A stretch of 64,000 nt of DNA from Vermamoeba vermiformis. Taxonomy: Eukaryota. Position numbers and translations under genes: made by a program. Below, in pieces: positions 38,768-62,778 of this stretch. The notes beneath the pieces were generated by a model that worked only from the letters and a program-made list of their open reading frames with translations, searched no databases and was not told where the DNA came from. Position 1 is the stretch's first letter, and each line of letters starts with the position of its first letter. The stretch spans positions 124,001 through 188,000 of the forward strand of contig JBEWZL010000253.1 of the NCBI GenBank assembly GCA_045837725.1. The letters are read 5' to 3'.

Positions 38768-41523
38768 TTATTCATCGTCCTCATCAGGGGCCTGATCGTA
38801 GCCTGTCTTTTCGCGCACTGTCTTGAAAAAGCTGGTGAATTTGGAGCCAGGACAGGGCTTCTTCAAGTACAATTCTTTCGGGGCCTGGTGGACAGTTAGT
38901 ACCTTGCCTAATATGGCAATCGTGTCAGCGTACCGTGTTGATGAGTACTTCTAAACCACCCTGCGCTTCAATCTTCTTCTGCCCCTTCGAGCTCTTCAAA
39001 TAGACGTAATAGCCCGAGCGGTCCTTCATAATGTTGATGCGCTGATGTGAGATCTTGCCGTCCTTGCCCACCTTGCTGATCGTGAACGGTGTCTTCTCGG
39101 GCTCTGTGAGGGACACGCGCACCAAGTACGTGCCGGGCTTTTGCGGCTCCAACAGTGTCTCTGAGCCCGGTCGTTCAATGTCGCCGTGGAACCACCTGTC
39201 ACTGCGTCAGTCACTGTTTGACACATGTCACAGCGCGGTACTTACGGGTTCTCGCAAACAGTTTGCATTGTGTCTAAAATGTTCTTCTTGGGACCTTTGA
39301 GCGGACCAAACCACTTGGTGAACAGACTGAAGCGCTCCAATGTGGCCACTTGTCGGTCATCGCGCTTGTTGCTCAGCGCACACAGCGCAGACAAGAGACG
39401 GAATTGCAGGTCTTTGGGACCAGGGGGCGGCAGTTTGAGTGTGGCGTACAGGGCCTTGGCGAATTTGGCAAAATCAACGGTGCTAAATAGAGCTCGATTA
39501 GTCACATCACGCATTGATAGTAGTGCATTAACGGCGTACTCTTTGCCCTTGAAGTTGTTGCTCCACAAGCCCTGTGCATCGAGATCACCATCGAGGGCGC
39601 ACTCGATCATGGCCTCGTCGAGGTAGTTGATGATTTGATCGAAGGACGGACGCACACTCGGATCTTCATTCCACGCAGCTGCAAGAGTGTTCAGATGAGT
39701 GTCTGCCACACTAGACGGCAGTAGTAGTATAGGACGTACCTTCCATCAGCTTTTTGATCGGGCCCGGCACATCAGCAGGGATGGGCGGACGTTCTTTCTT
39801 GTCGCACACCGCGCGCACAAAGTTGTTGTACGAGTCGTGTGTCTCGAATGGCTCTTTGCGCGTCATGACCTCCCACAACACAATGGCAAAGCTGTACACG
39901 TCTGACTTCTCGTTCAACGGCTTGCCGCGCAACACTTCAGGACTCATCCACAGGGGCTGCAAGATGACACGTGTCAATCAGTGGTCGTTGTAAGAAATGG
40001 AATTCCAAAACCATATTTCAATGCCTAAATTAGGCAAACAAATCCTTCGCAAGAATACACGAAGAAGCCGAAAAGTGTAATTCAGTGAAAATCACAACAA
40101 GTCACGTGCTTCCACGATATTGCGATCATCGCTATGCATAGTACTACTAAATAAGGAAATGACTTACAGTACCAGGGGCTACACCATTGTCTTGCAGGGA
40201 CTCTGAGCGCTTGACAGCACTGAGCCCAAAGTCACAGAGCTTGACAGTCCAGTTCTCATCGACCTGTCACGTGATTGTCAGTGCTCGTTCAGTGAACGGT
40301 GAACACGTGCGTAACAGCGAATCATCAATTATCCGCAAGATTGTTACAATTCACATGTAGATTACAGCGCACATATCGACTATAAGTGGTATATATAATG
40401 TATGGTGCCTTGTATTAATTAATTGCAATAAAAGAAATTGTTGACCAGCTTGAAACTGAGATCGAGCAACAAAAAACACATGGAAATACATACCAGCAAG
40501 TTAGTAGGCTTGAGATCGCGGTGAATAATTGGTGGTTTTGAGCAATGCAGCCAGTTCATGCCCTGCGCGATGTCTTTGGCCCACTTGATCTTCTGGATGA
40601 GTGAAATCTCAATGTTGCTGTGCAGGATGTCGAAAAGATTACCGCGCGGCATCAATTCAGTGACAATAGCGAGGTGAGAGGGCTCAGTGCACGCACCCAT
40701 AAAGAGCACAATATTCGGGTGACGCAAGTGACTGGCGAGGAACAAGAATTAGTGCATCTGTTTGGCGACCATAAAGATATTACAATCACGTGTTGATATT
40801 ATTATTAATGCATATGACGCGTGTGTTTGTATTAAGAAATGGAAATGTAGCGCATAACGGAGAATGAATCCACAATTTAAAACTTAAAAAATTAATTAAT
40901 TGATATTAACTACTTAGGATAATAGTTCCGCTACGTATATAATGCACGATTATTTGAGTTAAAAATAATACAAATAAACCAATGCCGATCTGTCGGTTAA
41001 AAAAAAAAAAAAAAAATTCTCTGCTAGTCGCTACGTACGTCATGATCTGCACTTCCTTGCGGAACTCTTCGAGCACATTCTGATCAAGGTCTTGCGCCAA
41101 CAACTTCTTGATGGCAACTTGTTTGCCGCGACAGAGTCCCTTGTACACGGTACCGAAGCAACCACTGCCCAACTTCTCTTGAAACACGAGCTCGTGCGAG
41201 CCGATTTCAGGTGCTTGTACTTCAGTAGCATCAGTGTCGCCTGAGAGCGTGGAGGTGAAGAGCTTCTTCTTTTTCTGGAAATTAACAAGGTGGATGCAGT
41301 CAGTAAGTGGTCTGACAATCAGCGCCAAATAGTTCAAATGGTATGCAGTCAATTTCAAATATTACTGCGTTATTATGGTGATATTAAATAATTTTAAGGC
41401 CGTTACTAGAAGTAAAATTTCAGATTTGATCAAAAATAATAAACTCGTCATTGCTTGCTGAACGGTTGATTATCGTACATCGTCAATTGTAAGACTGTCC
41501 AATGAATCAGCAATATTGGCCAT
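38768..41523 (-). CDS. shk: TKL kinase with C-terminal SH2 domain (Dictyostelium Shk-type)
   Basis: GSGCFG, HPNIVLFMG, HRDLKPTN, DFG, PLWMSPE, then SH2 WFHGDI...GTYLVRVS...FTISKV...HQRI. Confidence 0.88.
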
Positions 41524-48177: not shown

Positions 48178-51100
48178 CTAGTGCGAGTGTGAGCGTGGAT
48201 CTGAGGTGAACGAGCTCGCAGAATTGGAGTTCAGTGAATTCGCGTTCAGTGAATTGGGTGCGTTCAGTGAATTGGTGTGCACTGCGTACTGATTCGGTGC
48301 GTACTGTTGGCGTGCAGTGTTGGGACTGTGATTCGGTGACGGCGCGTAGTTGGGCCGTGCGTACTGGTGGTACTGCGTCATCACGTCCTTGGAGTACTGT
48401 TCATTGAACCCGAAGGGTGGGCTGCGATATGATTGGTCCACGGTGTAGCCTGCCAAACTGCGCGGTGGTGTTTGAAAATTGTTGGCATTGCTCGCATTGG
48501 CCGACGAGGGTGATGGATAGAGGGCGTTGCTGTTGTAGTAGTTCTGGATCTGGTACGCGGTGCTATTTTTAGCGCTGCTCAGCTCGCGAGTGCTGGCACC
48601 AGTGATGGCAGCAAACAGCTTGTTGAGGGGTGCGCAGTAGTTGTCGGGGTACTTGTCGCGCTCCTCCACCACTGGCGCAATGAACGAGTGCAGCAGCGAC
48701 CACGTCTCCAAAGTGTTGGGCACCTCTTTGCCCAGCTCCAACAGCTTCTTCACCAGCTGTGTGTCGAGCCATATGGCCAGGGACAGGGCTGGACAGCACT
48801 TGATGCTCGGGACTCGTGCCAAATTCGCGCGTGCATCGCTGAGACAGTTGTGCACGTGACGCAGTCCATCGTCGAGTGACATCTGTTGCAGCTTGATGTA
48901 CTGCAAGTAGAGCAGGGCCAGTGTGCTCTCCAGGAAGAAGTGGCCTAGTGACACTTGCCTAATTGGGGAATGATGGTTAGTGTCAATCGTCGCAAAAGAA
49001 TTGAAGTCCAAAAATCACGTGACTCACTTGTCGTAGGTCAAGTTGGTATGGAGGTACTTGAGATAGATTTCGAGTTCTTTGACCTCAGTCATGCGCGCAT
49101 GGAGTCTAATTACAGCAATCAGTCGTGCTGCACAATGCACTTGTCTAATTAGGACTTACAAGCCCACATCCGAGGGCAGATTGAAGCTAGCCACGTTCTT
49201 GAACAGATTCCTGCGTGTGAGGTTAGAAGCATGATCGACAGGAGTCAAATGCATCTAATTTAATGCGTGCACGTACGAGGTCACTAAGAATACCAGTACT
49301 ATGTGCGCGAGTAGATCGTAGGGCCGCTCTTTGCCGGGATCTGTTTTTTCGTCAATGATCAGTTGTGAATAGCTCTCCCTGGAACATGATAGTAAGTACA
49401 CAACGCCGGGCAATCGCCTATAAGCTCACTCACCAGGCATATTGATCGTGACCGGTGTTTTCGAGCGCTGCGCGTAGTGCGTAAATTCTGTTGGTTCGGT
49501 CAGATCTGCTTTAATGCGCACGACCACAAATCCGAATCTTACCTCTGCCATACTGATACAGGGATGCGCAGTTTTGAATCTTGAAAAGATTGGCACGTAG
49601 AAAATGCACCAACCGCAAAGCGAGCTGCGATCTCAGTTTTGCCGTCGTTAATGTAGTAAAGAGCCGAGAAAAATTGAGCCAAGGCTAGTAGTGTAGTTGC
49701 GTCCTATTAATAAGTTATTAGTACTGGTTGCATCAAACCACGTGCTAATTTCCTAAAAAGGATAATTCCTCTGCGGGAAGCGAGTGTCTAATTAAAGTCG
49801 AGGTTGGGAAGGTCTTCGCTATGATTCAAACCGTGTAATTATAACAAACGAACACACTAGCAAGTATTTAAATGTGACTTGCATCCAAGTGCACGATCTG
49901 CGACACTTAGGAACGAAGCGAGCAGAGCAGAACAACCCAGCTGAACTTTGGATTTTAACGAGCGGATTAATTGAGGTGCGGTTTATCATAATTATGCTTA
50001 CTGGATCTAACGCACGTAATCTCCAGCTTCAACTCTGTCGTCTTGAAAGACCCAAGTGGATTTTAAAGAAAGAATGGATGCTTTGAGGATGTATTTTTCT
50101 TAAATTACAGGTGCGTAATAGGAACACAGGTAAATGGTGTCTCGTTCACACGTGAAATCCGGATTTGAAGCGAAATTAAAAGAATTCGTCGTTTACTCGT
50201 AAATACGCAATGGATTTTGATGTTCCAAATTTCAGTATTAATACCGTACTTAATGCTCATGATTTAATTTCCTACAGGAAGACGAGCGAAATCGATCTAA
50301 ACCACAATTGACATGTAAAGTGGAGGATGGGACTTACCAAGTTGTAGCCGTGCGGTGTCGCAGTCAGGTACTTAATTATCTCTTGCGTCGCTGCCATGAT
50401 TTGATGCGCTTGATTGCGTTGATTTTGCGTCAGCAGTCCTGCAACATTGCCGTCAGTAGGGCGCTTGATATTGCTTAGATGAGATGGAGCAGATCAATCC
50501 GTGCTGCATCTGGTTGGATTTATTGCACGGAATAATAAGCAACCACCGTGGATGCATAACCAGAGATCAAAAATTTATGGGATGTGTTCGCGCGGTTTTA
50601 GTAACAAGACCACCGTTCCATCGGTATTCGATGACCCTGGTCGAGTTAGAATTCGTTGCGCCTCGCTGCGGCTAATTTTTGTTGGTTGTGTCTAAAAATA
50701 TCTTTTCTATCTTTGCAACAATTTTAGTTTGGATTTATCAGCGGGAGCTTTTTCCGCCGCAAAGAACTGCCGTACAGCGCGTTGAACCTCCGACAACGAG
50801 CTGAGTAGCAGTTGCAGCGGTAATACAGTCCCGAATGATTTAATTGGCGCACCATTTGGTGCACCACGATCCTGATCTGATCGCAACCACTAAAATTTAA
50901 ATTTTTGATTTGAAATCACGTATTCCTTTGGGAAAATTAGCCAATTTGAATAAGTGTGATCGACGATCGCTTGATGCATTCAGTTTTCAAGTTTGAGCTT
51001 GGATTATTGCAAGTACGTATAAATATGTAGCGGGCTTTATCACCGCGCGAGGGTAAAATAGGCATATATATAAATATAGACGCTTAATTAAAAGACATAC

Positions 51101-51875: not shown

Positions 51876-53652
51876 TTGTCTAATTAAGCAAAAAAGACAA
51901 AAGTTAAAACGTAAACCACAACATCCAAAAAAAAATAAAATTAGGAAGGTAGTGGTGTTCGCTAAGGGTTTAAAAAATTGGAAAAAGAATATCACGTTTG
52001 AGCGAGCAAAAAGACAAAAAATGTCAAAAAAGCGGTAATAAAAATAGAACAAAAGATTTCGTTGAGATTTCCATCTAAAAAAGGAAAGGTGAATTATAAC
52101 CAAGCATCGTTACAGAATTCTTGCTCCGAGCCAAGCCGAGGCCCGGTCAGCGAGTGATTCCATTGACGATGTTGGATCTGCAACTTTTTGTTACAGTTCG
52201 GTGGCAATCAATTCTATATCTCTATTTTTGGTATAAATCGGAACTTGACGCCGACTAGTGGATAATTATTGTTAAGACATCTGCTCCACTCTGTAAATAT
52301 ATCGCATCTAATCGGTGCATGTATGATTATGTAAATGTTTTGGTAGCATTACGTGCTCGTCAGATGTCGATCTGCTTGACACGCAAAAAATATCGCGAAT
52401 TCAGCAGTGCCAGGCACGAATGAATTGGATGTAAAATTAATGTTAAATATTACCTGGATGTTGCGGGTGTATTGGCACGACTCGTTGCTAAAACAAATAA
52501 ACTGGAGCTGTGTGGTTGTTCAACTCGGATGCAACAAGTGACTTTTTTAAAAACTGACTGAGCTGAGTTTTGCAGGTGTGTAGTATGCTATATTAGTATA
52601 ATTACAAATACTTGATCTGAGAAAAACCGGGCTAGTCCGTGCTCAACACAAAATCCTGTGACATCTGGTTGACATGTGAATCGCAAACAGTTTTGGCGTA
52701 ACTTTCGGAACATTGCCGCCAAGCAGCACTACCAACAGCTGCGTGTGATATGATACCACAGCTCATTGATTCACTATGTAATATGTTGATCAATTTCTCG
52801 CGACATGCGTGCCTCGATCTGAGTTTGCAGATGTCACGGTCATGACAAACACTAAACTCACCGGAACCAAGGACATCGTAGAGAACTGTCGAGGAGGTAC
52901 AATGCGCTGCTATTAATAGTCGTGTATTGATATGCAATGTTTTTGCTTTCGGTAACTTGTCGAGACCAAATTCGAAACATTTCGATTGCTCGGACAACAG
53001 TGTTACATCGCTTGTTGTCGAGGTACCGTAGCTAGCTTAAATTAGCTGTTATATTTAGAATAAATCAATAAATTTTAGTTTTTAGTTGTGTGGTTTAAAA
53101 TAAACCAAAGAAGAGATATTGCAATGTTTTGAGACAACTACTTCGCGAATCGGAATCGGCATGTTTTCATTGTAACGACGCGATTGTAATTGAGAAGGAT
53201 ATTCGCTGTCAGTTCGGCGGATAATTAAATGGTCGGTGATTCTGCGCTCCGAGATAAATTTTATAAATTCCGCTGCAATCACGTAACAACTTGTCTACTA
53301 AGCGTAATTAATAGCATGGCAATGATGAAACACATGGCTGTAATAGTATACGATTGTGTTGCTCGTCATCACTGTTCGCGAATCATATTGACACTTTCAA
53401 AAACTAATCAGGTGAAACAATCTTTGACACGTGTCATTGCGCAGCTATCTCCGAGGCCACCAATTATCTAGTATATTGAAATTATAATTTCACCGAATTG
53501 ATGCTGGTTTGATTGCACTGTTCCTATTTACGATTTTAGTTCTTATCCGCGAATTAAATTTACATCAATGTACAAGCATTGATCGCGTGAAATTTCCAGC
53601 GATCAAATCGAAAGATTGGTAGCGCACGTGATCGAGTCTCAAACACACAACA

Positions 53653-56192
53653 CTAGCCCAGTCCTTTGAGGGGTCGCGGACTGGTGATGGCGTGGCGACA
53701 GATGGGACAGAGTCGCTGATTGACAGGTCCCGCGCTGATCAGTTGTTGACACGTGAGACACAAAATGTGACCGCAGTCTATGCTCACCGCGCCTTTTTTG
53801 GTAAAGTCTTCGTAGCAGATCGGACACGTGAGTGACTGGGCCAGTGTGTCGCGTTCTCGTTGCGCGTCCTCCACGTGTCGCTGCATAGTTGCAATCTTTG
53901 CATTCAGCGCCTCGTAGTCGCGCTGTTTCTCCTCCAATCTCGCGCGGAGATTGCGCACTTCAGCGGTGTTTGTTTCGCGCTCCTGGCAACAGAGTTAGTG
54001 TCTATAAAAGGCAAGTGGTACACGTGCCTGTTTGATCGAGACGCTCGTGCGGTTCATGAACTGATCCTTAGAGTGCGCCAGTTGACAGCTGACACCGAAC
54101 AGCACTTGACACCAGACACGTGTCAACAGGGCACTCTCGAGCGGCAGTTGATTGGCGATGAATGTCAGCAAGTACGCTGCGAGTGCGTCAATGACAGGCG
54201 TCAGAATGAGGGTTGGGCGAGTGACACTTACAGAATGAACCAGAGTCCAGCAGTTGACATCTGAGGCCACGTGTCAACAGAGTGGTCAGTGACGCGACAC
54301 TCGATTTGACACGTGTCTGAAGCTCTGACTGGAAGTCACCGCTTGACACCGTCGTGTGATTGAATTCAGTGAAAAATTCAAACAAATTCATCGATGGTCG
54401 TGGTGCTCCGAGGGCGAGGTCCAGCGGAATAATTTTGCTCATTTGCACCGCTATTGGCTCTGGGAAATCGCTGGGAACGCGCAACTTGGTGCAAATAGAG
54501 TGCGGATGCAAATATTTAGCCAAAAATAGAAGGTGTGTGGCTAGCACGTGCTTTTGTGGCTCCAGTCCCTCCACGTGATTGATAATATCGCACGAGAGGT
54601 CAACCAAATCATTTCTAAATTAGGTGATTAGGAATTGGTACCAAACCAAATATCTCCGCGTACCTCGCAGTAAAGAACGGCAAAGTAACCAGCACCAACA
54701 TGACATAATAACCTGCAAATATAATGAGAGTTGTTCATGAACCATTGGCTAATATCGGGTACCTCGCGAACCCCACGTGACTGGTGGTGGAGCACGGTCG
54801 ATGACGCGTGTCAAGATCTGCAGCACAGTGTCCATCAACTCCAAGTCACTGCGCAGCGAGTTAGAAGTGCTAAAAATAGCGACAACACTTACTTATTTGG
54901 AAATTCAAAAGTGTCAATATTGCGCTGAAATTTCTTCCTAAAATAGCTCAGTGATTGCAGCACGTGTCGCACATTGTCCTCCAATGGCGCGTGGTCGACA
55001 GCAGTGGTGAGCAGTGCTAAATTTAGCACCTCCCAGTCACGTGATTTCGCTGCAAAGATCTGCTGACCAATCACGTGTACGAGTAGCGCAGTCCAGTCCA
55101 CGTGTTCGGTGTGCTGCACAATAAATAGTTGCAAACACTGGTAGGCCAGGGTCGTCACGTGCGCGGAATTCTCTTCGCCGTACTGATCGATCGTCTTGAT
55201 CAGTGTTTGCAATAATTTTACGAGCACGTGTGCCGGCATGGTGCTAAATTTGGGAAATACTTTCACGAAGAGCTGCAAGATGTAACTCAAGCACGTGGTG
55301 TCTGGTTCATGAAGCAGTATTTCACTGAACAGTGCCACCACAGTGCTGAAGTGAGGTTCATCGACCAGGGCAGCAGCAGCATCGACCAGGGCACGCACGT
55401 GATCGCGTGTCTGATTCATGTTGGTCATCTTGTACGCGATGAGTGCGTTCATGAACGGCTTCCATTCAGTGAAAGCACGTGATCTTCCCTTTGTCTTCAG
55501 TGAACACGTGCTGCAGTGTGGCCAGTGACTTGAGAGACACATCGACCTCGTGCTGCCATTACCTTATTAGGCACTGCAAGTGGTGCAGGTGACTTACCGT
55601 GTAGGTGGCCAGTACTAATTTGGAAATCACGTGCGCGAACAACTCGTGTTTGATGCGCGTGTCAATCGTCATGACTGGCAGTTCGGGCAGAAAGGCGAGG
55701 TGTTTGACTGACAGGTGTCAAAGAGTGAGTGGCACTGGCAGGCTATTTATAGCACTTACTGAACGAGATCAAAAATCCTTTGCTGAATCTGCTCGGCTCG
55801 GCACTCAGCACGCGACCGATCAGCTGCTGTGCCGTCAGGAGTGTACGGGGACTATAATTAGACGATAAATACCTGCAAACACTGCACCAGGAACTCGTTG
55901 TAGGTTGACGCTGAGGTCGCGTCGAGTGTCTTTTTGAGCTGCTTGATTGCTTCGAGGATCTCCTCTCTATGGTCACTAGTTAGCATCGTTACCGCATAGA
56001 TATAATTAATTAATAAGATTTTAGATAGCGCCGCTGATGTTAAGGTTAACAGAACCGAAGACGATTTAATTAATATTAAAATGGATCGGGACATTAATTG
56101 CGCTGGAATATTGTGTGCATCTAGCGAGACTTAATTACGTACTCGTTGTTAGAAGAGAGCTTCTTGAGTAATTTATTATGCGAGTTTCCCAT
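53653..56192 (-). CDS. Helical-repeat protein with coiled coil and C-terminal C3HC4 RING (E3 ligase-like)
   Basis: MGNSHNK start; helical exons; CPICYEDFTKKGAVSIDCGHILCLTC...CPICR. Confidence 0.75.
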
Positions 56193-56468
56193 GCAGTAAT
56201 AATCGGATCAGATCTGTCTCGCGCAGCACATGCTTGACCACTCGTTATGGAGCGCTATTGGTAGTGAAACGCTAGTTCGTTATGAAAATGACGTTATTGC
56301 ACTTTGTTGTGCTCGTGTGGCTCACTAAGTGCATTAAATCCAATGACAGTGGCATCAATTGTCAATTTCTCGTGCGCCGCTGGTGCTGTTTTGCGAGACA
56401 TGTCTTGTGTGATTTGTTTGAAACACCGAGGTAGGGCCAAGTCAAGGCCATTTATAAACAGTTTATTA

Positions 56469-59400
56469 TTACACATCTTCCAAGTGCAGTCGCGGTACAA
56501 TGTTCATTGCCTGCAGCTCTTGGAACAGCAGTTTGGCAGCATAGGGGATCTTGAGCTGCGAGAGTTCGGTGGACTTCTTGCAGTACTGACACCAGCCCTG
56601 ATAGCCCACGAAGCCGCACTGCTCGCACACGTACACCGTGAACTGATCGGACGAGTGCATCAGTCGCTCCATCAGCAGTGCCGAGGCTCCGTAGCCAATC
56701 AGACAGTCGCGCTCCATTTCTCCGAGCCGCAGACCTCCGTCACGTGATCGACCCTCCGTGGGCTGACGCGTCAACACCGCACGAGGACCACGTGATCTGG
56801 CGTGCATCTTGTCTGCCACCATGTGCTTGAGCTTCTGATAGAACACCGGTCCCTCAAAGATGTACGCATTCAACATCTCACCTGTAATGCCTAATTTGGT
56901 CATCCGTCAGTTGACTGATACAGCGCATCGCATCACGTGCTTGACGTACCTGAAGTGAGACAGTCTTTGCCGGAATAATTAAAACCCCGCTTGATCAGTT
57001 CGCGGCTCACAAAGTCTACGCGATCTCCGCCGAATGCCTAAAAATAGATCAGTGCCCCGTCACTCGCAGATAACCATATTTAGCGTACCGTGCCATCGCG
57101 GAACTCGCCCATGAGCACACCAGCCTTGCCCGCCAAGAATTCAATCAACTTGCCCACCGTCATGCGCGAGGGGAAGCCGTGCGGATTCATGATGAGATCT
57201 GGCACTATGCCACTGTCGCTGAACGGCATGTCCTCGTGCTGCACGATGATGCCGACCACACCCTTCTGACCGTGGCGCGATGAGAACTTGTCGCCGAGCT
57301 CAGGTCTCCTCGTCTCGCGGAACAACACCTTGATGAGCACCTGATCGTCCTCGCTGCCACTCAGCATCACCTTGTCCACGATCACGGGATTGAGGCCCTT
57401 GTAGGTCTGGTGGTCAATCTTGTAGTCCTCGTCCGACACCTCGCCGATCTGGGCCACGGGATCTGCCGTGTTGCGCGGTGTCTGCTTGTTGATGTACACG
57501 TCACCGGTCTTGAGTGACACGCCAGGCTGTGCCAGTCCATCGCTGTCCAGTCCGTGGTACTTGAGCTGTGCATTGCGCTCGTCAGCTGCAGGCGGTGAAA
57601 TGATGCGATCGTGCGAGCCATTGGCGTACTTCTTGATCAGCGTGCTCGCCTTCTTGAGCACCATGCACCGTCCAAAGCCGCGGTCAATCGAGGCCTTGTT
57701 GAGCACCACTGCGTCCTCAATGTCGTAGCCGCTGTAGGACATGACTGCCACGATGGCATTCTGCCCGCCAGGTATCTTGCGGAAGTTGATGAGATCGATG
57801 GTCTTGGTCTTGACCATGGGCTGTTGCGGATACACGAGCAAGTAGAGCAGCGTGTCGATGCGATTGAACTGATTGTAGCCAATGGCACCCATCGCCTGCT
57901 TGCCCATCGCGCACTGGTACGTGTTGCGCGGGGACTGGTTGTGGTGCGGATAGGGAATCAGTCCTGCCACCACACCTAATATGGTCAGCGGCTCAATCTC
58001 GAGGTGCGTGGTGCGCGGATGAATGTCGCGCTCGTACATGGCGATGTAGCAGTCGTTCTCTTCATTCACATCCACGTACTCGATCAGTCCTTCGTGCAGA
58101 AAGTCGTCGAAGGACTTGTAGCCCTCCACTAATTGCCTAATATGGTGCGACTTGACACGTGGCACACCGTTCTCGACGATGATGAGTGGTCGACACAATC
58201 TGCCACCATCTGAGGCAATGTAGATCATCTTGTCGCCCTCGTGCACGTAGATCGACACGAATTCCTAAAAATAGCCTCGTCAGATGCCATTGCCTAATAT
58301 AGATCGAGTGGCCACTCACCGAGATCTGACCGCTGCGTCGCATGAGTCTGAATGCGCGCACAAACTCTCTGGGCCGCGTGTGCACGCCGAGAATGACGCC
58401 GTTGAGATTGACGAGATAGGTGTACGCGCTGTGTATCTCCTCGCCCGACAGCAGCGTGATGTCCTCCACGCCCAGATTGAAGGCCAGGCGGTGAATGGTG
58501 CGCACGTCCATGTCCGTGGTCACGTGGGTGAGCAGCGCGAGGTTCTTGACGAGGCCGCAGCTCTCACCCTCAGGCGTGTCGCTCGGACACAACATGCCCC
58601 ACTGACTGGGCTGCAGACTGCGCGGACCACTCACTTTGCGCGTCTTTTCGAACTGACTCTGAATGCGCGTCATCATGCCCAGACACGCGATGAACGACAG
58701 ACGCGACAGGGCTGGCAGCGGTGCAATTAGTGCTGGGGGACGTGATTGCCTAATATGGAAATAACCTACCTTGCGTGATGCCAGCGCGGTCCATTTTAAA
58801 TCGTTTGATGCGCCAGTTGCCACTGCTGAGTGCGGAGACGAATCCAAAGTAGATCTGATCGGGTGTGATGTAGCGCACCACATCGAAGGGCTGTGCGCGG
58901 TTCTGCTTGCCGAGTGCATCGTCAGCGCGGCGCGAGATGTCCTTGGTGAAGCGCTTGAACAAGTCCTCGAACAACAAGCTCAGCAGCTGTCCGGCCAGTT
59001 CGAGTCGCTTGTTGCCGTAGTAGTCCTTGTCGGAGAGCGCGCTCTGATCGTTCACTGAATGCAACAACTTGCGCAGCATCATGCCGAGGTAGATGGCCTT
59101 CAAGCGGAAGTCGTAGTTCTTGCACGGCACGTGATTGAGAATGATCTGCGCGAGGATGTCACGTGCTTCATCCACTTTGGTCTTGCGGCGTCGTCTGGTG
59201 CCCGCTTTGATCTTGCCACCAATGTAGTCGAGGGCCTGCAGCTGCGTGTTGACTCCGAGCGCGGCGCACTTCTGCAGCGAGGGTGCGAGGTGATCAATGT
59301 AGTAGCTCTCACTGCCCACCAGCTGCACGGCCTCTTGATCGGTCTCCACGCCCATGCCCTTCAGCACCACCATGATCGGCAAGTCCTCGCCAAAGGTGTT

Positions 59401-60408
59401 GTGCTTGAGCAGCAGCTCGCCATTCTTGTAGATGACCGTCGTCTTGGACTTGCGCTCGTAGTTGGAACTCGTGACATTGGCGGAGTAGAGGCCCTTGTTG
59501 TCCACCTCCAAGATGATTCTATTTTTAGACAGCTGTTCTTGAATCAGAATCACCTTCTCCGTGCCGCGGACAATGAAGTAGCCCCCCGGATCGAGCGGAC
59601 ACTCGCGGTACTGCGCCAACTGCTCCTCGGTGGCCCCGTGCAGTATGCAGTGCTTGCTGCGCAACATGATGGGCAAGCGACCAATCATCACGTTGTTCTT
59701 CGGCTTGAGTTCGTTGCTCGCGACTTGTGTGTAGCGCAGATTGACGTAGATCGGGGCACTGTAGGTGAGGTCGCGTAGTCGACACTCTTGCGGGGTCACG
59801 TCGCGCGTAACAAAGTCCTCTTCAATGCAGGGCTTGCCAACCCAGATGTCGGTGAATCTGCAAGCAAAGCGAGTGAGTTCCAGCACTCGATTAAAGCAGG
59901 TATATATATGTACGCACTCTAAGAAGAAGTTAGGATCAGCCTCGCAGCGCACAATCTTGTTCGCTTCGACGATCTTCTTGAGCTCGTGGTCAATGAAGAA
60001 GTTGTACGAGTCAATGTGTTGCTTCACGAGTCCTTTCACTTTCAAGAACGCTGGTAATAACTTCCATTTGTCCTAGTAGCAACGTGTTAGTACCCAACGC
60101 GCGTGTTTTTGCGAAAATTAGCAGATTTGGGCTTGGCAGTTGTGCGAAGTCAAGAAAATGAAGGAAATAATTTATGTGCATTTATAACCACCATAATATA
60201 GCTCTTGGGATGATCCGAGTAATTTAAAATTATTTTTGAATTATTAAAAATTAATTCTTACCTCGATCGTTTTGATGGGTTCTGTTAATTTGTCAGCGTT
60301 GTATAATTCTTTTGCGAATTCATTGCTGAATCCTTCTTTAATATTTTCATGCATAAGTTCATCCTCGATTTGATCGCCAGTGATCTTCTCAGCTAACTTT
60401 AACCGCAT
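56469..60408 (-). CDS. RPC2: RNA polymerase III second-largest subunit
   Basis: [74 protein letters not shown]. Confidence 0.97.
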
Positions 60409-60652
60409 CTTCAACTTGCTTGTCAGTCAACTCCGCGGCCTTAGTATTGGCACGGCGTGATTTAGATTTGTTAGCATCCATGGATGACATGCTTGTGCTA
60501 CTCGCTGTTAAATGTCACATCCAACTGCCGCCCCTCGTACTACGAGCTAACAGGCACGTGACAACAATCAACAACAAAATTTCACTCGCAGTGCGAAGAA
60601 GATACTCAATTAATTGCACACTAGTAATTGACTGCAAGCACACTGCTCTATC

Positions 60653-62778
60653 ATGCAGACTTACAAAACGAAGGTCAACAAGGTCAGTGCGCAGTATCAA
60701 GAGAACTACAAGCGCAATCAGGAGCTCGTGGCAGATCTGAACGCGCAGCTGGGCAAAGCACTGGAGCAAGGCAAGCCCGAGCACGTCAGACGTCACATTG
60801 AGGGCGGCAGATTGTTGGCTCGTGACCGCATTGAACTCTTGCTCGATCAGGTACAAGACAACATCCCACCGCTAATTACTTTAATATCGATGCAAATAAT
60901 GTGACTAACAATGCTAGTATAATTTCGAATATTTAAAATGTCTAAGGACAAATTTCTAACAACACGAAAAGGATTCGCCATTTTTAGAGTTGTGTCCACT
61001 TGCTGGATGGGGCAAAGACAATACACCATTGGGAGGTTCTGTTGTGTGCGGCATTGGTCTTGTTAGGTAAGTTAGTTCACCATAAATGAGGCTGTGTTGC
61101 TGGTACACAAAGGCAGATCGCAACCTTAAGTTGCCTTCAAGTAACTCATTTCAAACAGTGGTGTCGAATGTCTGATATCAGCCAATGTACCTACAATCAA
61201 CGGTGGCTCCGTCAATCGCACCACACTGAAGAAGTTCGGGCGCATCGATCAGATCATCACCGAGAACCGATTGCCCGCCATCTCCTTAGTCGAGACAGGT
61301 GGTGCAGATCTGCGCCAACAAGCCAAGGTGTTTCATGCGGGAGGTGCAGGGTTCCGCTCACTGACACGCCGTTCCAAGGACGGACTGCCCTCGATCAGCG
61401 TCGTGTTCGGCAGCAGCACTGCAGGCGGTGCGTACACTCCTGGCATGAGTGACTACGTGATCATGGTCAAGGTACACCTCCCGCACTCTGACATTGCATT
61501 TCCTGACTGACGCACCTCCACATCCAGAACCAAGCCAAAGTGTTCCTCGGTGGTCCACCCCTCGTGAAAGCAGCCACGGGTGAAGTGACTGACGCCGAGA
61601 CACTCGGTGGCGCAGAGATGCACAGTCGGGTCAGTGGTGTCTCGGACTACCTCGCTGAGGACGAACATCACGCGCTCTATTTGTGCCGGTAAGGGACTCC
61701 ACTAGTGACACTACCACGTGACACTACCACGTAACATTGGATGAGACTGACACGTGCTGGCAGACAGGTGGTGGCATCGCTCAACTGGCACAAGAAGACA
61801 CCGTTCCCTGGCGGACATCTCGTGCGCAAGATTGATGCGCCGCTCTACGACCCTGGTAAGTGGCATTCGCGCGGTGCTATTTATAGCTGCAGACTGACAC
61901 GTGTCAGATGAGTTGCTGGGCATTGTCTCGCCAGATGTGCGGTTGCCCTTCGAAGCGCGCGAAGTGATCGCACGGCTGGTGGATGGCTCGCGCTTCAACG
62001 AATTCAAGCCCAGCTACGGCACCACACTCGTCACGGCCTGGGCCGAGGTGCACGGCTTTCCGATCGGCATCATCGCTAACAACGGGGTAAGTGGCGGGTG
62101 TCGCGGTGGTGGTGCTATTTATAGCTGCAGACTGACACGCGTCACAGGTGATCTTCCCCGACACGGCGAACAAGGCCACGCAGTTCATCGAGATCTGCGA
62201 GCGCCGCGTGATTCCGCTGCTGTATCTGCACAACATCACGGGGTTCATGGTGGGCAAGAAGTACGAGCACGAGGGCATCATCAAGCACGGCAGCAAGATG
62301 ATCAACGCCGTCTCCAACTGCGAGCTGCCAGCGATCAGCATCATCATGGGGGCCTCGTACGGTGCAGGCAATTACGCCATGTGCGGCAGAGCTTACAACC
62401 CGCGCTTCTTGTTCACGTGGCCCAACTCCAAGGTCGCAGTCATGGGTACGTAGCTGCAGTCACGTGCTGCACACTGCACATTATTGACACGTGTTATTTG
62501 CAGGTTCGGATCAGCTGGCAGGTGTGATGGTGACCATTCAGCGCGATGCAGCGGAGAAGTCAGGCCGCAAGTTCAATGAAGAGGCTGCAGCACAGATGAG
62601 CAAGATGTTCAAAGACAAAGTGGACAGTGAGACCACAGCCTATTACTGCACGAGCAGAATGATCGATGACGGCATTGTTGATCCACGTCAGACACGTGAC
62701 ATCTTGGGTCTGTGCTTGTCGGTCATTTACACCAATGAGATCAAGCCGAGCGGCAGATATGGTCTGCATCGCATGTAG
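60653..62778 (+). CDS. Biotin-dependent acyl-CoA carboxylase beta (carboxyltransferase) subunit, MCCB family, AccD2/AtuC-like
   Basis: [70 protein letters not shown]. Confidence 0.9.

Follow-up and report, generated by a model that had tools for sequence, protein, structure and literature searches.

The stretch of DNA analysed here, a window of 64,000 nucleotides (nt) from contig JBEWZL010000253.1 (assembly GCA_045837725.1, positions 124,001 to 188,000), holds two neighbouring genes, one for a RING-finger protein and one for RPC2, the second-largest subunit of RNA polymerase III. Both are crowded with copies of a ten-letter word, referred to below as the box, which is CYW6RG, that is, C(C/T)(A/T)6(A/G)G. 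These boxes resemble the sites read by MADS-domain proteins, and they may be sites of this type that selection keeps inside transcription units rather than in promoters.

Genes and Boxes of the Region

The two genes are the following:

53653-55986, minus strand, RING-finger gene: 9 exons, 8 introns, 631 amino acids; 11 boxes; 20 CACGTG in the coding sequence
56469-60408, minus strand, RPC2 (RNA polymerase III second-largest subunit): 7 exons, 1155 amino acids; coding-sequence model and homology

The RING model is an uninterrupted open reading frame (ORF) once its eight GT..AG introns are removed, and according to Pfam its protein carries a RING domain at the C-terminus; the acceptor of intron 3 is uncertain, and RNA reads give no support for this gene. 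In RPC2, loose ends of RNA reads at 57088, 58319, and 58713 agree with three of the intron borders. The RNA evidence consists of three runs of thin coverage, in which most reads are 95-99% alike to the window. Between 56466 and 62700, the reads show many third-codon differences from the window and stop matching at intron borders; these runs derive from a diverged strain or a sister species. Ahead of RPC2, the ATG at 60491 opens a frame other than that of the gene and ends in TGA; the in-frame start has been modelled at 60408.

Outside these two genes, boxes are also found in a carboxyl-transferase gene on the plus strand, whose domain assignment has been confirmed and two of whose intron joints are supported by RNA reads (including the joint 62085/62148), and in a minus-strand gene at 38.8-45.4 kb with an SH2 domain (38934-39194) in the exon that adjoins the box at 38907. 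The names that the original prediction had given to these genes hold for RING (Pfam), RPC2 (homology), and the carboxyl transferase. The exon that it labelled "Shk" does hold an SH2 domain, the kinase part of this label being putative, and the gene that it called Zn2Cys6 gave no Pfam match on the single exon tested. Counts by gene part refer to a set of ten models (16.3 kb of exon and 50 introns), in which RPC2 and RING were checked by hand and eight more were obtained by conservative exon chaining; a permissive intron list and a first chaining run, both of which over-predicted, are excluded from it.

The best match of RPC2 in the protein collection is only 74% identical, and no close RPC2 is present there. 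In a single-gene FastTree phylogeny, read as topology and not for support values, its nearest neighbours are two unnamed proteins, followed by Balamuthia and Planoprotostelium, and it falls outside the fungi. Because of this placement and of the SH2 domain in the "Shk" exon, the organism is probably an amoebozoan and not a fungus.

The boxes of RING and RPC2, followed by four that lie elsewhere, are listed below without assignment to a strand:

53792-53801, box, coding, RING exon, D F T K K G
54002-54011, box inside RING intron 8, 10 nt past the donor
54520-54529, box, coding, RING, L F L A
54615-54624, box forming the acceptor end of RING intron 6 (CCTAATTTAG, ending at the junction)
54870-54879, box inside RING intron 4, 13 nt past the donor
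54937-54946, box, coding, RING, S Y F R K
55017-55026, box, coding, RING, V L N L A, within the 14-bp perfect palindrome TGCTAAATTTAGCA
55244-55253, box, coding, RING, P K F S
55562-55571, box inside RING intron 3, 26 nt past the donor
55743-55752, box inside RING intron 2, 7 nt past the donor
55852-55861, box inside RING intron 1, 11 nt past the donor
56890-56899, box containing the acceptor of RPC2 intron 6 (AAATTAG, junction, G); lost in the relative
57038-57047, box forming the acceptor end of RPC2 intron 5 (CTATTTTTAG, ending at the junction); lost in the relative
57074-57083, box inside RPC2 intron 5, 5 nt past the donor; CCAAATATAG at 8 nt in the relative
57975-57984, box, coding, RPC2, ACC ATA TTA GGT = T I L G; identical in the relative
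58136-58145, box, coding, RPC2, CAT ATT AGG = H I R, then CAA TTA; CCATATTAAG in the relative fits the pattern
58265-58274, box forming the acceptor end of RPC2 intron 4; lost in the relative
58293-58302, box inside RPC2 intron 4, 17 nt past the donor; CCTAATTTGG at 20 nt in the relative
58749-58758, box inside RPC2 intron 3, 11 nt past the donor; CTATTTTTAG at 10 nt in the relative
59519-59528, box, coding, RPC2, TCT AAA AAT AGA = S K N R; outside the coverage of the relative
61877-61886, box inside the predicted intron 61856-61907 of the plus-strand carboxyl-transferase gene
62115-62124, box inside carboxyl-transferase intron 62087-62147 (read joint 62085/62148)
38907-38916, box inside a 49-nt intron predicted for the SH2-domain gene (minus strand), with a full TTGCC..GGCAA dyad
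48563-48572, box within a predicted exon of the minus strand, GCT AAA AAT AGC = A K N S

The original prediction had placed 20 boxes between 54002 and 59528. Nineteen of them match the pattern (10 of 11 in RING and all nine in RPC2), and only the one placed at 55615 does not; the four that it named elsewhere (38907, 48563, 61877, and 62115) match as well. The three exact copies of CCTAATATGG announced for RPC2 are present at 57975, 58136, and 58749, and a fourth lies at 38907.

Excess over Chance and Dependence on Spacing

In the whole window there are 55 boxes, whereas dinucleotide shuffles of the window contain 14.17 ± 3.59 and none of 100 reached 55. This figure hardly moves (14.0-15.3) when the shuffling is confined to blocks of 30, 50, 100, 200, or 500 nt, which preserve A/T-rich intron patches. 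The region 54002-59528 holds 19 boxes, about one per 300 bp across 5.5 kb, versus shuffle means of 0.35-0.61 (maximum 4; 300 shuffles per block size). Counted in 4-kb bins, 15 boxes fall at 52-56 kb and 9 at 56-60 kb, with 0-5 in every other bin. As a side observation, three boxes, one of them with a TTT-CC flank, lie within 250 bp at 216-462, where there is no gene model, and may form an upstream cluster of the classical kind.

The excess does not extend to similar words. Fifteen composition-matched patterns of the form S-(Y/R)-W6-(Y/R)-S have 14-34 copies each in the window, and the box excess depends on exact spacing, as revealed by two sets of spacer controls. The first shows 15 copies of CCW6GG, versus 2 of CCW5GG, 2 of CCW7GG, and 4 of GGW6CC. 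In the second, CTA-W4-TAG also has 15 copies (1.05 expected in shuffles), versus 7 with W3, none with W5, 1 for GAT-W4-ATC, 2 for CAT-W4-ATG, and 3 for GTA-W4-TAC. The extended form TTNCCW6GG occurs 14 times versus 0.45 expected. Neither is the enrichment a property of RPC2 genes in general: 79 other eukaryotic RPC2 loci (1.11 Mb) hold 172 boxes versus 248.6 for the matched patterns, a ratio of 0.69, whereas this ratio is 2.34 in the window, and a contig from a close relative, designated L001, has 5 boxes versus 0.7.

Boxes in Coding Sequence and Codon Choice

Part of the boxes are written in codons, and it had been predicted that there they override codon usage. This is borne out by 3000 synonymous-codon shuffles that keep both the protein and its codon usage, in which RPC2 would have 0.22 boxes instead of 3 and RING 0.33 instead of 5; the combined count of 8 versus 0.55 was reached in none of the 3000. 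An excess is therefore present over codon-shuffled as well as local-composition controls (8 versus 0.55, and 19 versus 0.35-0.61).

In RPC2, in which the G+C content at third codon positions (GC3) is 0.752, the boxes use rare A/T-rich codons: ATA (5 of 80 Ile), TTA (9 of 117 Leu), AGG (2 of 73 Arg), and TCT, the sole copy of which (1 of 64 Ser) lies in a box. Beyond residue 100, the only two TTA codons (639 and 690) are in or beside boxes. The description of both genes as otherwise GC-rich suits RPC2 well and RING only moderately (GC3 0.614).

Half-Sites and Flanks

The 55 boxes combine two types of half-site, giving 15 CC..GG, 20 CT..AG, and 20 hybrids (10 CC..AG and 10 CT..GG). CT-type starts read CTA and not CTT in 27 of 30 cases, and AG-type ends read TAG and not AAG in 28 of 30, as counted by eye. 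The two types also differ in their surroundings, when both half-sites of each box are pooled and each is read outward on its own strand. TTn stands ahead of 23 of the 50 CC-type half-sites versus a background of 7.3% (T at -3 in 35 of 50, T at -2 in 32 of 50), and three boxes have this flank on both sides, while it is found ahead of only 6 of 60 CTA-type half-sites (background 8.1%), which prefer G at -1.

The original prediction had assigned these words to the site classes of SRF and MEF2, and with the TT flank added they do fit both classes of MADS site published. CTAWWWWTAG is given as the MEF2 consensus, to which yeast Rlm1 also binds (PMC3250504), and the genome-wide motif of Mcm1 is described as a pseudosymmetric 16-bp sequence, TTnCCnnnTnnGGnAA, with low base readout at its centre (PMC5880240). 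According to PMC3640940, Dictyostelium has two SRF-like and two MEF2-like genes, and hence Amoebozoa can have both MADS classes.

Conservation in a Close Relative

L001 is a metagenome contig of 3436 bp that carries the RPC2 gene of a close relative. The protein is 96% identical over the large exon, and the DNA is 84% identical over 2.4 kb, while the four introns shared with the window can be aligned at their ends only, their interiors having diverged. Despite this divergence, the boxes are retained: all five boxes of L001 coincide with boxes of the window, two of them coding and three intron-internal. When the interiors of the L001 introns are shuffled, a box turns up in 1-3% of the shuffles of each intron, and the chance of finding one in at least three of the four introns is about 3e-5.

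What is kept is the pattern more than the letters. The coding box ACC ATA TTA GGT is unchanged in L001 although adjacent third positions differ, while the other coding box goes from CCATATTAGG to CCATATTAAG, with an Arg-to-Lys change, and still fits. In intron 3 the window has CCATATTAGG and L001 has CTATTTTTAG (11 and 10 nt past the donor, respectively); in intron 4, CTATATTAGG is replaced by CCTAATTTGG (17 and 20 nt); and in intron 5, CTAAATATGG by CCAAATATAG (5 and 8 nt). The window boxes that have no counterpart in L001 are exactly the three that overlap an acceptor, the non-acceptor boxes being kept five out of five. Since L001 lacks precisely those three, the acceptor-overlapping class looks incidental.

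The box spelling of the two coding sites is specific to this lineage. For T-I-L-G it is used by L001 and L043, 2 of 80 loci, and for H-I-R-Q by L001, 1 of 67.

Placement within Genes

Among the 25 boxes that fall in gene models, 11 are intron-internal, upstream of a separate branch point and 5-28 nt past the donor, 5 overlap an acceptor, and 9 are in exons. Internal boxes are found in 5 of 8 RING introns, 3 of 6 RPC2 introns, and 2 of 6 carboxyl-transferase introns, that is, in 10 of the 20 introns at 52-63 kb, versus 1 of 30 in the other modelled genes. The A/T-rich spacer of 480 bp between RPC2 and RING contains no box. The original idea that the boxes mark gene bodies and not promoters consequently holds at 53.6-60.4 kb, where all of them sit in exons and introns and the spacer is empty, and fails as a general rule, the boxes being concentrated at 52-63 kb. 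The idea that the boxes supply in-frame stops, by which retained introns would be marked, was considered and rejected: RPC2 intron 3 gives an in-frame TAG in its box, and intron 4 gives none.

The original prediction would have been refuted if acceptor or branch-point sequence accounted for all copies, and it does not. An acceptor is overlapped by only 5 of the 25 modelled boxes, and identity with a splice signal (acceptor or CTRAY branch point) was not found for the class as a whole. Those five, which are ends made of a pyrimidine-rich tract and TAG and are of the class missing from L001, are what speaks for the boxes being no feature at all, but something that splice acceptors, branch points, A/T-rich patches of introns, and chance produce between them. 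This explanation is contradicted by the 19 boxes that stand against about 0.5 even in 30-nt shuffles, by the synonymous shuffles (8 versus 0.55), by the matched-pattern and spacing controls, by the ratio of 0.69 in 79 loci, and by the chance of 3e-5 for the conservation observed, and is barely credible.

The position of the internal boxes raises the possibility that the signal is read in RNA, as an A/U-rich splicing enhancer of the pre-mRNA situated just past the donor, with the exonic copies acting as exonic enhancers. All 25 modelled boxes are transcribed, the 11 internal ones follow the donor closely, 21 boxes lie 0-29 nt downstream of donor-like hexamers versus 7 in the 30 nt upstream, and the six ATATTAGG copies are all in the same sense orientation. 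Nevertheless, the position needs no special mechanism, because in an intron of 40-60 nt the stretch past the donor is the only one free of other signals. The regional distribution (10 of 20 introns versus 1 of 30) argues against a general splicing signal or requirement, and boxes with a full flank exist outside gene models, at 216-462, 2098-2326, and 4262. In addition, the flank enrichment was found with both half-sites pooled and each read outward, the sense strand of the internal boxes has no A-versus-T bias, and the box of RPC2 intron 4, which is asymmetric, has one form in the window (CTATATTAGG) and another in L001 (CCTAATTTGG). A dyad with flanks on two sides and an A/T centre that changes its letters is predicted by a dimer that reads duplex DNA, and not by an RNA element, which is accordingly a doubtful candidate.

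The boxes could also be remains of mobile elements, if they or the introns had been spread by small inverted-repeat elements similar to introners. Two adjacent carboxyl-transferase introns (61856-61907 and 62087-62147) share 34 nt at 97% identity, box included, as well as an identical first 9 nt, and in the SH2 gene the initial 20 nt of two introns are 95% identical, which hints at intron duplication or conversion. These are, however, the only two pairs among the 50 modelled introns that share more than 12-13 nt, and sequence shared along the length of introns at unrelated sites, as expected of introners or miniature inverted-repeat transposable elements, was not found. L001 has the same RPC2 introns in diverged form, which shows them to be orthologous and old, and boxes occur inside conserved coding sequence too, all of which makes a mobile origin very improbable.

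CACGTG and Other Palindromes

The box is not the only dyad word in excess. CACGTG, the Cbf1 site, is the most over-represented hexamer of the window, with 79 copies versus 18.1 in shuffles (z = 17 against an order-2 model) and a density about 8 times that of the 79 control loci; it is densest at 53428-55633. The coding sequences of RPC2 and RING contain 26 copies versus 7.0 under synonymous shuffles, and in RING all three frames are used. The RING protein has 10 His-Val (HV) dipeptides versus 1.7 expected, and all 10 are spelled CACGTG, so that this word shapes the protein sequence by forcing HV dipeptides. The composition and word content of the window shift at about 36000, from about 40% G+C with 12 CACGTG in the left 36 kb to 46-54% with 67 in the right 28 kb.

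Perfect palindromes are also abundant: 144 of 10 bp versus 80 and 52 of 12 bp versus 22, the corresponding ratios in 20 control loci being 0.97 and 1.11. Most of the excess comes from A/T-only words with TAATTA or ATTAAT cores (42 versus 10.2), which are frequent in the spacer upstream of RING. The 12-bp palindrome TGACACGTGTCA occurs seven times (36587, 39965, 44200, 47031, 47489, 53425, and 61895), and in some introns it constitutes the 3' end, CTGAC-ACGTGT-CAG, with branch point and acceptor inside one palindrome. A general process that makes palindromes was rejected, as the excess is confined to three word families and the other classes are close to expectation (18 versus 18.1, 33 versus 23.7, and 28 versus 19.1).

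The box could therefore be one of several hyperabundant dyad words, beside CACGTG/TGACACGTGTCA and TAATTA/ATTAAT, and form a DNA-level signal whose reader is not a MADS protein, but another dimeric factor, a methyltransferase or repair system, or nucleosome positioning. The figures for CACGTG and its HV dipeptides, together with a palindrome excess restricted to three families and about 1x in controls, are in line with this explanation, for which HIP1, the highly iterated palindrome of cyanobacteria, 15- to 300-fold over-represented and of unknown function according to PMC5861425, offers a precedent. Nonetheless, the boxes are mostly imperfect palindromes, and only 5 of the 144 palindromic 10-mers are CArG-like. 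The words also behave differently, since L001 keeps only 1 of 5 window copies of CACGTG, versus five of five non-acceptor boxes. Close coupling between boxes and E-boxes was looked for and not found, the nearest E-box being within 25 nt for 8 boxes versus 6.9 expected. Finally, in their half-site rules and TTnCC flank the boxes agree with MADS sites in particular. For these reasons, a reader of another kind is considered rather unlikely.

Interpretation

The best explanation is that the boxes are double-stranded DNA recognition sites of the type read by MADS-domain dimers, maintained by selection inside transcription units, to which a probability of roughly 0.5 is given. Three forms would exist, an SRF/Mcm1-like TTnCC(W6)GGnAA, a MEF2/Rlm1-like CTA(W4)TAG, and hybrids of their half-sites. 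They would crowd the transcribed parts of RING, RPC2, and the carboxyl transferase (~52-63 kb), leaving out the spacer between, and would be placed wherever a gene tolerates them: in introns of 40-60 nt, in the stretch between donor and branch point, and in exons, at points where the peptide allows the use of A/T-rich codons that are rare elsewhere. The excess of the boxes, their exact spacing, flank, and placement, and the conservation of their pattern despite changes of letter are facts of this DNA. From them we infer the identity of the binder, the occurrence of binding, and its effect. Binding by a MADS-type dimer would make the box an intragenic regulatory or chromatin-organizing site, by analogy with yeast Mcm1 and Cbf1. 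The roles named in the original prediction, which are chromatin phasing, suppression of cryptic promoters, and coupling to splicing, are speculation.

Several points weigh against MADS-type sites. Classical MADS sites lie in promoters or enhancers, and to our knowledge no role is known for dense MADS sites across the body of a housekeeping gene. The evidence for conservation consists of one gene on one 3.4-kb contig of a relative, and no RING orthologue was found on L001 that could provide a second gene for comparison. Thirty of the 55 boxes lie outside confident models, so that the division of the window into exon, intron, and intergenic boxes is incomplete. A crude scan for peptide motifs did not find a MADS gene in the 64-kb window. 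The common orientation relative to transcription of the six ...ATATTAGG boxes, five of them in RPC2 and one in the SH2 gene, is a further difficulty, because a symmetric DNA site does not predict it. Lastly, passages of PMC5880240 indicate that ORF copies of the Mcm1 motif in yeast are mostly bound in vitro only.

If the boxes are bound, classical transcription-factor sites would be under purifying selection in very short introns and in housekeeping codons, and this would represent a testable case in which the coding and intron sequence of a microbial eukaryote is constrained at the DNA level, with a possible view of regulatory or chromatin factors acting within transcription units. A broader proposal, which seems a long shot at present, is that this lineage writes dyad words (MADS-type boxes and CACGTG) into particular gene bodies as a chromatin- or transcription-coupled code. 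Such a code would override codon choice and, in the case of CACGTG, even amino-acid sequence, as in the 10 HV of the RING protein; its boxes would be held across species amid intron turnover, and its words would be read inside genes, and not at promoters, by general regulatory factors, as a eukaryotic parallel to the palindromes that are hyperabundant inside bacterial genes. For annotation, caution is advisable in this lineage, in which A/T-rich rare codons and conserved intron patches may be DNA signals unrelated to translation or splicing.

Comparison with Known Systems

In the literature, covered mostly at the level of listings and abstracts, no account was found of CArG or MEF2 words enriched in gene bodies. 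With the CArG box of SRF and Mcm1, the boxes have in common the CC/GG core, its pseudosymmetry, an A/T spacer of exactly 6 bp, and the TT that flanks CC two bases further out. Their A/T centre swaps letters between species and stays A/T, which fits the low central readout reported in PMC5880240. They differ in that G or T is preferred here between TT and CC, in their density of ~1 per 300 bp, and in their location at this locus in introns and codons instead of promoters. With the MEF2/Rlm1 site they have in common the 15 exact CTAW4TAG copies and the preference of CTA/TAG over CTT/AAG, and two words named in PMC3250504, CTAAAAATAG and CTATTTTTAG, are present in the window. Unlike that site, they are located in gene bodies, form frequent hybrids with the CC type (20 of 55), and have G at -1, often GTG, with no TT.

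Yeast general regulatory factors offer a second parallel. The two words in excess in the window, the CArG-type box and CACGTG, match the motifs of two of them, Mcm1 and Cbf1. Together with Reb1, Abf1, and Rap1, these two are reported to organize chromatin (PMC5880240). The functional sites in yeast are described as lying in promoters (PMC5880240). In the window, on the contrary, it is within ORFs and introns that the words show enrichment and conservation.

CArG boxes are also known from introns of plant and animal genes, such as the second intron of AGAMOUS and the first introns of smooth-muscle genes, and transcription-factor sites known as "duons" are found in exons. These cases resemble the boxes in that the sites act from within the transcription unit. 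However, the intronic CArG boxes of AGAMOUS and smooth-muscle genes are few and belong to long regulatory introns of tissue-specific genes, whereas here they are many and occupy introns of 40-60 nt and the codons of a microbial housekeeping gene.

HIP1, finally, is like the box a short dyad word, hyperabundant inside genes and under selection. It is prokaryotic and consists of a single exact octamer, while the boxes belong to a eukaryote and constitute a degenerate class that fits a known family of transcription-factor sites.

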